Below are positions 10,872 through 63,610 of a stretch of DNA of 64,000 nucleotides, in pieces. The translations under genes and the position numbers were made by a program. Each line of letters opens with the position of its first letter. Position 1 is the first letter of the stretch. Location of the stretch: IMG/VR virus record IMGVR_UViG_3300047576_000027, positions 32,001-96,000 of that record. The stretch is one strand, 5' to 3'. The notes beneath the pieces are model-generated. The model was not told where the DNA came from. It searched no databases and was given only the letters and a program-made list of their open reading frames with translations. Origin of the DNA: a virus (taxonomy: Duplodnaviria > Caudoviricetes).

Positions 10872-11586
10872 ACCCTGCTCCGTCATCTGCGCAGGCAAAG
10901 GCCCCTGGCTTCCCGGTCGCGGACGCCTGCGCTTAATCCACAACGAAGACAACCGCATGACGCCGTGTCAGGCTTACCAGAAGGCACTCAATCAGACCAA
11001 GGCGGAGGTGCTGGTGATGATTCATGAGGACGTGACGATCAGAGATCCGCATTGGTTGGCGATGATCCACGATCTGTTCGTGCCGATCTTTGACACTGGT
11101 GACCCCCGAGAGCCTAACCCGATAGTCGCGGCCGGGCTGGGGGGTGGAACGTCGCTGGGACGTCCTGATCTGTACCGGAAACCATTCAATATCTGGAACC
11201 TGGCACGCGGGGGATATGCGAGTAATCAGTCCGATGCCGAGGTTCACGGTGAGCGTTTTACTGGCGTAAAACGAGTTGCAGTGCTGGATGCTTTCGTCAT
11301 GGCGGTGCGGGTTGAGTGGTTGCGGCGGCGGGGCGGCTGGCCAGTAGATAATCTGACCTTTCACTGCCTGGACCTTTGGCTGGCCTGTGAGGTTGCGCGG
11401 GATGATAAGGAGATTTGGATGTACGGAGCGGATTGCACGCACCACGGCGGCGGGGTGAGCGTGACGGATAAATATAAAGATGCCGGGTGGCTACAGGGAG
11501 GAACGCTTTCGGAGGATCATTTGGCTCCGCACCGGTGGTTGGCGAATGTGTACCGCGACGTTTTGCCGATTGAGGTAAAGCGATGA
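10861..11586 (+). CDS. GT-A fold glycosyltransferase (GT2-like)
   Basis: AYQKAL..VLVMIHEDV (DxD-like), VAVLDAFVMAVR, FHCLDLWL, CTHHGGG. Confidence 0.85.
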   Translation: MRIEPCSVICAGKGPWLPGRGRLRLIHNEDNRMTPCQAYQKALNQTKAEVLVMIHEDVTIRDPHWLAMIHDLFVPIFDTGDPREPNPIVAAGLGGGTSLGRPDLYRKPFNIWNLARGGYASNQSDAEVHGERFTGVKRVAVLDAFVMAVRVEWLRRRGGWPVDNLTFHCLDLWLACEVARDDKEIWMYGADCTHHGGGVSVTDKYKDAGWLQGGTLSEDHLAPHRWLANVYRDVLPIEVKR

Positions 11587-61573: not shown

Positions 61574-63031
61574 GTGAATACCAAGAATCCCGGCGCGCAA
61601 CTCATCGAGCGCGCGCAAAAAACAGGAAGTTCTGCCGCCACGGCAAAAGGCGCATTCCGCGCACTGGTCGCCAAACTCAAGATTATGCCTGACGTTTTCG
61701 CGATGGCGAAACGGGAGAAAAGGACGACGACGCGCGCGGCCTGGTATGCCGCGCAGCATAAACGCCGCGCCGATGCTCGCTATGAGCCGATGGCCGCAAA
61801 ACAGGCCAAGTCCCTGCGACTGCCCACGCGGGACATGCTCGCATCGTGCAAGCGACTGCCAGCCGGCTTGACCGCTGCCGAGCGCGCATCCATCCAACCG
61901 ATGCGCGAAGCGGTAACTGCCTGGCGAGCCAGACCGCTCTACGTTCGCGCTTATTTTTCCACTCCGAATGGCGTACCGGACAAAGAGCGGAAATTGGCCG
62001 AGGTGCACAAAGGCTACATGGGAGAGTCCCCCATTTGCGCCCGGTATGCGGAATACAATTACGCTTGGGGTGCGCTGCGCGTCCACTCGCCCGGTAAATG
62101 CGTGCTCCCGTCCAGCGTCGGAATGCGGGAGACTGGCAGTAATCGGGACTGGACCAAGCGCAGCACCCTGGACCGCAAGGCAAACTATTTCCTCGCTTAC
62201 CCGCGCGTGGAAGATCGCGAAACGAAGGGCGCGTGGACTGGCTACCTCGTGGTTCCAACCGCATACCGGCAGCCGAATAAAGAGCTCGTCATCAAGCGCA
62301 GTAAGCACCATATCTGCATACCGGGTATGATGCGCGCCGATGTCCCCATCACGAAGGGCGACGGCAGGCGCGTCTGGCCCGCACATATTCAGCGCCGGAT
62401 TCTCTCGATCATCGCGCCTGCCCCTATCTCGTTTTCCGCCGTGCGGACGGGCGGTGCGAAAAAGGCAGCCATATCCGGCGCTCTCCTCGCCGATCACGCA
62501 GTGTCTGGTATGTGGCTGACCAGCGATGCTTACACTGCTCGCGAGGTTCGCGAGTGGCTCAAGACCGAGCTGAATCGCGCACTGGCGCATCCCGCGCGCC
62601 TCTCAAGCGATCTGTATGTACTTCCGTCCGTTGATGCGGATATGGTTACACGCCACGACGCCACGGGAGCACAAACCGGCGTGGCCGTTCGCCGGGACTA
62701 TGGCTGGGAGCACGGGGTAGACCGTGCCGAGTGCGACCGGGAAACCGCGCGGAAAACTGAGATCGCCGCGCAGCGGGCGCGTGAAGCAAGAGCGACGGCT
62801 AAACAGCAGCGCCGTGAGCGGTTGTTTGCGCGACTGGCAACTATACCGGTCCGCGCAGAAATGGTTCGGGCTGAGGGCGCGTGTATGGCTGGTATCGAGT
62901 CCTGGTGCCGGGCGCACGGCAAAAGCGTGGGAGAGACAGTGCCTCTCCGCACGCTCGCGAGCGACAACCAGGCACGGGCGTACGCGCTGCGGATTGCCCA
63001 TCGAATCCTTGCCTCGCAGGTGAACGCATGA
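61574..63031 (+). CDS. Large Arg/Ala-rich hypothetical protein with C-terminal GACxxG domain
   Basis: AGGAG SD; VRAEMVRAEGACMAGIESWC motif seen in phage proteins of unknown function. Confidence 0.7.
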   Translation: MNTKNPGAQLIERAQKTGSSAATAKGAFRALVAKLKIMPDVFAMAKREKRTTTRAAWYAAQHKRRADARYEPMAAKQAKSLRLPTRDMLASCKRLPAGLTAAERASIQPMREAVTAWRARPLYVRAYFSTPNGVPDKERKLAEVHKGYMGESPICARYAEYNYAWGALRVHSPGKCVLPSSVGMRETGSNRDWTKRSTLDRKANYFLAYPRVEDRETKGAWTGYLVVPTAYRQPNKELVIKRSKHHICIPGMMRADVPITKGDGRRVWPAHIQRRILSIIAPAPISFSAVRTGGAKKAAISGALLADHAVSGMWLTSDAYTAREVREWLKTELNRALAHPARLSSDLYVLPSVDADMVTRHDATGAQTGVAVRRDYGWEHGVDRAECDRETARKTEIAAQRAREARATAKQQRRERLFARLATIPVRAEMVRAEGACMAGIESWCRAHGKSVGETVPLRTLASDNQARAYALRIAHRILASQVNA

Positions 63032-63293
63032 GCCATGACCGTGCCGGATGGCGAGAGAGGAAACGGGATGGCGCAAAGTCATCCCGTCCGCGCGGCGGGC
63101 AGCCGGGCGCGAGGAATGTCGGGAAGATCCGGGACTTGATTGGCCAGACGTTCGGGCAGCTCACCGTGACAGTGTTCGCGGGGCGCGAACCTGAACACGG
63201 CCATAACCTCGACGCCAGGGCGTTATCCGACTCTGCGTGCTGAATTATAGAGAGCGCGGCAACCCCGCGCCCTGAAAGGAGGGTGACTGATGA

Positions 63294-63386
63294 GAAAGTA
63301 AGCGGAGAGCGCGCCTGCCTTGAGGAGTCGGGCGCGTAACGCACCACTCGAAAAGAGTGCCGGATCTCAAGCTCCGGATGCGTTTA
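63294..63386 (+). ncRNA. Twister-like self-cleaving ribozyme (type P5 permutation), candidate
   Basis: GCG-GAGAG-CGCGC...GCGCG-UAA-CGC; P3 CACUC/GAGUG; P4 CCGGA/UCCGG with loop UCUCAAGC. Confidence 0.6.
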
Positions 63387-63400
63387 AGGGGAAAAAGACA

Positions 63401-63610
63401 ATGCCAAAGTTTAACGTAAAAATAGACCGTTCGCGCGTCACCGAATCGTCAGTTGAGATTGAAGTCTCTGCAAAAGACGAATGTGCCGCGCAGGAGAAAG
63501 CCGAGAAGATGGTAGAGAAAGCTATCGTGAAGGGTGATTGCGATTCTGAGTTTGACTGGGAAGAGACGAACACAGATGACAGCTATGAATATGAGGTGAC
63601 TAAGTTATGA
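63401..63610 (+). CDS. Small acidic phage protein
   Basis: MPKFNVKI..EIEVSAKDECAAQEKA; AAGGGG SD. Confidence 0.65.
   Translation: MPKFNVKIDRSRVTESSVEIEVSAKDECAAQEKAEKMVEKAIVKGDCDSEFDWEETNTDDSYEYEVTKL

Follow-up and report, generated by a model that had tools for sequence, protein, structure and literature searches.

Twister ribozymes are common and well known in phage operons and, to our knowledge, the role that they play there is still unexplained. Phage operons also contain other small self-cleaving ribozymes, twister-sister (RF02681) and the hammerhead; in its loops and pseudoknots the element described here follows the twister pattern.

The literature covers the tolerance of twisters to sequence change at the positions that matter below. 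The conserved GC of L2 forms the pseudoknot T2, and an "essentially invariant" G-C pair extends P4 (reviewed in PMC5408937). Exhaustive mutagenesis of the Osa-1-4 twister (Kobori and Yokobayashi 2016; PMC5113685) showed that activity can still be detected in 71% of single and 30% of double mutants, and that G13 is among only four positions at which every substitution leaves less than 0.2 relative activity; the assay was a 2 h co-transcriptional one, and its authors state that such values imply a much larger loss of rate. A survey of ~1,950 natural twisters, in which the 2-bp pseudoknot T2 is named PK1, found that a single PK1 imperfection lowers mean cleavage from 0.76 to 0.53, wobbles being harmless and most other mismatches strongly harmful (PMC11662667). 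Imperfections in the fourth P4 pair are milder (0.76 to 0.58), and the authors of the survey raise the possibility that stacking of P3 stabilises the 2-bp pseudoknot (PMC11662667).

A type-P5 twister layout in an intergenic gap

The window analysed here is a stretch of 64 kb, bases 32001-96000 of a 107,603-bp IMG/VR virus record. A preliminary description had proposed a twister-like ribozyme within what is a 157-nt gap, with an HNH-like ORF (63028-63243) on its 5' side and, on its 3' side, a 69-codon gene beginning at 63401. All of the segments that it had listed lie where it had placed them, on the + strand, by direct reading of the sequence:

63302-63304, +: P2' GCG (read from the sequence; together with L1', positions 1-9 of our own twister-P5 model)
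63305-63309, +: L1' GAGAG (read from the sequence), with G63305 in the general-base position and A63306 as the partner in the A.A pair (position roles from PMC5408937)
63307-63309, +: T1 strand GAG, complementary to CUC 63366-63368
63310-63317/63329-63336, +: P1 hairpin CGCGCCUG/CGGGCGCG (hairpin 63310-63336), 8 contiguous pairs
63337-63339, +: U^AA, with the predicted scissile bond U63337/A63338 and A63338 in the general-acid position
63340-63342, +: P2 CGC, 3 bp with 63302-63304
63343-63344, +: L2, the T2 dinucleotide AC; C63344 can pair with G63371, and A63343 lies opposite C63372
63345-63359, +: P3 hairpin CACUC-GAAAA-GAGUG, abutting both T2 and P4
63360-63364/63373-63377, +: P4 CCGGA/UCCGG, made of CCGG/CCGG and the closing pair A63364-U63373
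63365-63372, +: L4 UCUCAAGC, in which CUC 63366-63368 is the T1 strand and GC 63371-63372 the T2 strand
63379-63384, +: UGCGUU, a perfect complement of AACGCA 63338-63343

The element has the architecture of a type-P5 twister, one with a 3-bp P2 and a P3 stem. The helices P2'/P2, P1 and P4 follow one another in the permuted order, UAA lying between P1 and P2, and the placement of UAA relative to these two helices is identical to that in Rfam RF02684 and in 88 natural matches. P1 has one U.G among its 8 contiguous pairs and 2-3 further distal pairs. The P3 hairpin exactly fills the gap from L2 to P4, and the element occupies the sense strand of an intergenic site. When 63240-63400 was folded with RNAfold, the minimum free energy structure consisted of P2, P1, P3 and P4 in the twister arrangement. 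The T1 pseudoknot proposed earlier between GAG of L1' and CUC of L4 was borne out, three Watson-Crick pairs joining L1' GA-NNN to L4 U-NNN-A; the conserved U...AAGC of L4 is present in UCUCAAGC (63365-72), as are all of the catalytic nucleotides A63338, A63339, G63305 and A63306 (roles from PMC5408937 and PMC11662667). Two features depart from the family. In T2 the L2 dinucleotide should form two complementary pairs with the GC of L4 AAGC; here AC 63343-44 stands against GC 63371-72, with one C-G pair and one A.C mismatch, and the pair that closes L4 is A63364-U63373 instead of G-C.

We searched for the layout with a descriptor that demands only features present in the candidate: U-NNN-AAGC held by a stem of 4 bp or more, upstream of it GA and the sequence complementary to NNN, an adjacent P1 that has 5 or more pairs and ends at UAA, a P2 of 3 bp, and no more than 30 nt from P2 to P4. 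It matched once in the genome, at the candidate site, and 0 times in 46 Mb of random sequence (Markov-1). When P1 and the order of the elements were dropped from the descriptor, there were 0.075 matches per shuffled genome. The bare words GGAGAG..TAAC..TCTCAAGC returned at least 118 (~120) listed matches in IMG/VR that are essentially stemless, with at most 8 summed P1+P2+P4 pairs among those listed, as compared to 16 in the element. These bare-word matches had been candidates for homologues and were set aside as chance matches without stems, among those listed; they served as a control. Since the descriptor found nothing in the random sequence and matches by sequence words were stemless, the twister layout of the element is not a product of chance, and we estimate far below one such match per ~250,000 windows.

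Covariance models and natural phage twisters

The covariance-model search named as a check in the preliminary description, which had listed the absence of a match among the outcomes that would count against its reading, did not support a ribozyme assignment. At the Rfam 15 gathering threshold there was no match in the 64-kb window or in the rest of the genome, and at E<=10 the 401 nt from 63150 to 63550 gave no twister, twister-sister (RF02681), hammerhead, pistol or hatchet match; RF02684 alone against the genome, also at E<=10, had no match. For calibration we used our own model, built from 42 Rfam-validated phage twister-P5 ribozymes that were fetched from IMG/VR with a canonical pattern, and run with filters off. 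With this model the candidate ranks first in the window and in the genome, at 14.6 bits (E ~0.2 per window, about 0.2-0.3 per window or genome), as compared to the RF02684 gathering score of 37.6 bits. The alignment covers the 5' half only (P2'-L1'-P1-UAA-P2), the P4 of the model being placed on the P3 hairpin. Natural twisters reach ~35-75 bits with the same model, some P3-bearing and partial matches only 17-32 bits. No second twister was found in the genome with either Rfam or our model.

The fetched phage twisters score 39-68 bits with Rfam and often form arrays of 6-8 per locus. Natural P3-bearing twisters (seven sequences were available, nearly all of one family) still score 48.7-55.5 bits with the Rfam model, so the P3 insertion alone cannot explain the Rfam miss. 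We attribute the shortfall to five substitutions, each at a position that the models take for a conserved single nucleotide; of these, four make up two pairs that are compensated in three dimensions, the L4-closing pair (A-U) and the middle pair of T1 (U-A).

The comparison set consists of the 88 matches of our model in IMG/VR phage contigs. Natural P2 helices fall into two classes: a 4-bp class, CGCA/UGCG followed by GC, and a 3-bp class that includes AGCA...UGC-GC, UGCA...UGC-AC, GAC...GUC-AC and GCG...CGC-GC. The candidate, A-GCG...CGC-AC, belongs to the 3-bp class, and two natural elements (L140:7178-7234 and L136:7255-7312) have the same P2, GCG/CGC. Three natural P3-bearing elements (L133, L135 and L145) fold as P2, 2 nt, P3 and an abutting P4, which is exactly the topology of the candidate. 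The T1 pairs covary in the natural set, the middle pair included (L137); the U-A that the candidate has as its middle T1 pair is rare, yet lies within this natural covariation.

The preliminary description had taken an L2 of AC in place of NGC as the anomaly. That expectation does not hold for phage twisters with a 3-bp P2, in which the T2 dinucleotide follows P2 directly, and AC is itself a natural T2 dinucleotide, though only with an L4 of AAGU. The natural states of T2 are GC:GC, GC:GU, AC:GU, CC:GG, CG:CG and GG:CC, and T2 is complementary or G.U in all full-length matches among the 88. The natural 3-bp-P2 classes UAA UGC AC and UAA GUC AC always have L4 AAGU: a dedicated IMG/VR scan for GCAGAGGG...UAAUGC-AC...GUCCCAAG[C/U]C gave U (AAGU) in 110 of 110 distinct sequences and AAGC in none. 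The earlier caveat that T2 is imperfect thus located a real problem and understated it, as the A.C falls at a pair that is complementary in all natural comparators examined. The L4-closing pair is G-C in 88 of the 88 natural matches, and a search of IMG/VR for an A-U or G.U closing pair (R..T) in the commonest class, UAAUGCGGC, gave 0 matches. On the published mutagenesis and the survey of natural twisters at both positions, the closing A-U is unusual and probably tolerable, and the A.C of T2 is the serious defect.

Natural phage twister-P5 arrays are dense, with up to 12 pattern matches in a 12-kb locus (L206, among loci L133-L254). A 141-kb phage contig encodes a tmRNA (93 bits) and two tRNAs at and near L135:3103-3488, and a P3-bearing twister-P5 lies ~7 kb away in the same locus.

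Genomic setting and a complement of the product 5' end

The features that flank the element are the following:

63028-63243, +: truncated HNH-endonuclease-like ORF of 71 codons (weak PHROG match to phrog_374, E 0.005)
63276-63301, +: Shine-Dalgarno AAGGAGG and 3-codon minigene AUG AGA AAG UAA (minigene 63290-63301), by direct reading
63386-63610, +: Shine-Dalgarno-like AAGGGG (63386-91) and the 69-codon gene from 63401, first of about seven small + strand genes

Upstream of the HNH-like ORF is a gene of 485 aa that is 83% identical to a homologue on another contig (L124). The nucleotide homology runs into the HNH-like ORF and ends near 63205-63212, beyond which L124 carries a longer intact ORF with cysteine motifs and the sequence of the window differs. 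The comparison thus places the element ~80 nt inside a segment that replaces the 3' part of the HNH-like ORF, with a mosaic or recombination junction at that distance upstream of it.

The minigene has a strong, near-perfect Shine-Dalgarno sequence 7 nt upstream, and ends with its stop codon directly against P2'. It may be what is left of an ORF deleted from a former unit of twister, Shine-Dalgarno and ORF, or a translational gate. Among natural phage twister-P5 elements a stop codon lies within 8 nt of the start of P2' in 72% and a Shine-Dalgarno sequence within 40 nt after P4 in 94%; in the present element AAGGGG is placed 8 nt past P4. The hammerhead core 8-mer CUGAUGAG (63287-94) overlaps the start of the minigene, and the idea of a hammerhead drawn from it was rejected, an 8-mer being expected by chance and no hammerhead model matching. 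For the 69-codon gene we found no Pfam or PHROG family. The gap with the element lies within a long run of small + strand genes that converges on a primase-helicase gene and DNA methylase genes, and neither a sigma-70 promoter nor a + strand terminator was found near the element. GC-rich hairpins of the form AGCGCGG-loop-CCGCGC precede ribosome-binding sites in the window (63254-63270) and on L131, a contig with a gene homologous to that of 69 aa (73-95 and 273-296), and may be a shared intergenic signal.

In IMG/VR, JGI metagenomes and GTDB genomes, patterns fixing P2, T1 and L4 turned up no homologue of the element. Stricter patterns, with P2, T1 and the A-U closing pair fixed, gave 0 matches in IMG/VR, 0 in GTDB and 1 in JGI (L132), a stemless chance match; the exact 18-mer of the L4 hairpin had two matches in IMG/VR, both in coding repeats and unrelated. 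A search of IMG/VR with both flanking proteins found no related locus. No homologue of the element was found with relatives of the 485-aa gene, one contig (L124) stopping ~340 nt past the gene and another (L125) having a different downstream gene, or with homologues of the 69-aa gene (52-66% identity), which, where DNA was available, are preceded by short gaps or by an unrelated 153-nt leader. This leader, at the position of the element in one group of the homologues (L127:2471-2625, also L128-L130), is structured, with a 10-bp long-range closing helix CUGCCCUUGG/CCAAGGGCAG. It has no Rfam match at E<=1 and may be an unclassified structured RNA in the position of the twister-like element. The contig L125, which is related to the present phage, also has a sub-threshold match to the SymR antitoxin RNA next to a phage integrase gene (11126-11203, - strand; 35.4 bits, gathering 61).

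The weak P5 (AAAGUA/UGCGUUU) of the preliminary description is a poor pairing. The 3' GCGUU is better read as the complement of AACGC 63338-42, and we rejected the P5 in favour of a helix between 63338-43 and 63379-84. Its 5' strand, AACGCA 63338-43, is the sequence with which the predicted 3' cleavage product would begin, and the helix closes a three-way junction with P3 and P4. The three-way-junction fold has an energy of -33.7 kcal/mol, as compared to -32.9 kcal/mol for the twister-type secondary structure, and the predicted 3' product alone adopts the three-way-junction fold at -17.7 kcal/mol. A complement of at least 5 nt to the 5' end of the product was present in 15 of 80 natural phage twister-P5 elements versus 5.0+-2.1 in shuffled flanks, a count that includes related sequences from the same arrays and an enrichment that is indicative only. 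These complements are 5-7 nt long, lie just after P4 and often right before the Shine-Dalgarno sequence, and occur in about one fifth of natural elements, ~3-fold over shuffles. Their recurrence suggests that a refolding step may follow cleavage.

A slow, active or unrelated element

Membership of the phage type-P5 twister lineage, or descent from it, is in our view very likely. The opposing account, in which an unrelated three-hairpin structured leader, with a part in processing, stability or regulation, resembles a twister by coincidence, is the least probable of those that we considered. It would fit the absence of significance with Rfam and with our own model (E about 0.2-0.3), the lack of homologues in our searches, and an alternative three-way junction as stable as the twister-type fold; it is opposed by the helix-for-helix match to natural P3-bearing type-P5 twisters and by the joint occurrence of UAA, GA with the T1 complement, U..AAGC, and the order and spacing of P1 to P4, which was found 0 times in 46 Mb of random sequence.

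As to what the element does, our preferred reading, to which we give an even chance, is that of a crippled member of the lineage that has kept the whole fold and the active site and has lost most or all of its cleavage activity. Its position is the usual one in phages, in the order stop codon, ribozyme, Shine-Dalgarno and start codon. It retains a T1 that is complementary throughout and all of the active-site nucleotides (U^A, A, G, A), with the first pair of T2 and the L4-closing pair altered. Low activity is expected because T2 is weakened at a pair that nature and mutagenesis agree cannot be mismatched; we infer it from the published mutagenesis and from natural variation. Any cutting at U63337/A63338 would be orders of magnitude slower than in canonical twisters, and at that rate little of the operon transcript would probably be processed. 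If the RNA were cleaved, general ribozyme chemistry predicts an upstream RNA that terminates with the P1 hairpin and a cyclic phosphate, and a downstream RNA that starts with a base-paired 5'-OH, its first six nucleotides being paired with 63379-84. The folds indicate that the junction of P3 and P4 would then close just before the ribosome-binding site of the 63401 gene. Set against decay, all helices are perfect and two of the departures are compensated, which looks like continued selection on the twister fold.

A working variant, in which A.C (possibly as an A+.C wobble) and A-U are tolerated in a P3-bearing context, would cleave U63337^A63338 fast enough to split the operon transcript before the 63401 gene; we regard this as possible and somewhat unlikely. 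The complete active site and T1, the perfect helices with their two compensated changes, the typical placement between stop codon and Shine-Dalgarno, and the exact complementarity of the first six nucleotides of the product to 63379-84, a feature enriched in natural elements, all argue for it. Imperfections are broadly tolerated, the fourth P4 pair included (PMC11662667), an A+.C wobble is isosteric with G.U, which occurs naturally at the first T2 pair, and the Osa-1-4 data come from a twister without P3, the stacking of which may stabilise a 2-bp pseudoknot (PMC11662667). On the other hand, A.C is absent from the 110 natural AC-type twisters, the closing pair is G-C in 88/88, G13 substitutions fall below 0.2 relative activity (PMC5113685), and neither a covariance model nor a homologue with the variant conserved lends support. 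A narrower form of the idea, a natural twister with a non-canonical T2 (A+.C) and A-U whose cleavage is conditional, for instance pH-dependent or gated by ribosomes at the minigene stop, is improbable; if ribosome gating were true, self-cleavage would be coupled to translation, and the expression of the downstream small-gene cassette with it. Slightly less probable again is a base error or minority allele at 63343 or 63372, the real population having a canonical T2 (GC:GC or AC:GU) and, but for the A-U closing pair, an ordinary active twister. The record is a metagenome-assembled contig and one transition, at 63343 or at 63372, is enough to give a natural T2, but consensus errors in assemblies are rare and the A-U closing pair would stay unusual.

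The reading of a disabled or slow twister-lineage copy and its rivals differ in what they imply. If the element cleaves, the sequence rules by which twisters are found (Rfam models, descriptors) are too narrow, and T2 is less essential in the presence of P3. If it does not, it is a rare, freshly disabled ribozyme at a recombination junction, one that would show how such elements are lost or are retained for structure alone. With the whole fold kept and a pair broken that is otherwise always kept in nature, it is a ready-made test case. The comparison set adds a clean covariation of T2 (GC:GC, GC:GU and AC:GU, never AC:GC), and the recurrent 3' complement may bear on the role of phage twisters after cutting.

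The element is not a new kind of RNA; it is a natural off-consensus copy whose critical mismatch could be reverted by one base change. With type-P5 twisters (RF02684, clan CL00120) it has in common the order of its elements, the 3-bp P2 class and a complementary T1, and with natural phage twisters the L4 pattern U-NNN-AAGC. It differs in that the first T2 pair of the natural type-P5 ribozymes is G-C, G.U or A-U and that of the candidate A.C, in that their L4-closing pair is G-C and its own A-U, and in that they occur in arrays and the candidate as a single copy. Its nearest counterpart in T2 is the AC:GU class (UAAUGC-AC...GUCCCAAGU, 110 distinct sequences), which likewise has AC right after a 3-bp P2 but in which the L4 partner of the A is always U, where the candidate has C (AAGC). 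Among laboratory variants it resembles the Osa-1-4 G13 mutants (PMC5113685), in which the equivalent L2 purine of T2 is replaced and its partner C31 kept. Those, however, are mutants of a type-P1 twister with a 4-bp P2 and without P3, whereas the candidate is natural and P3-bearing.
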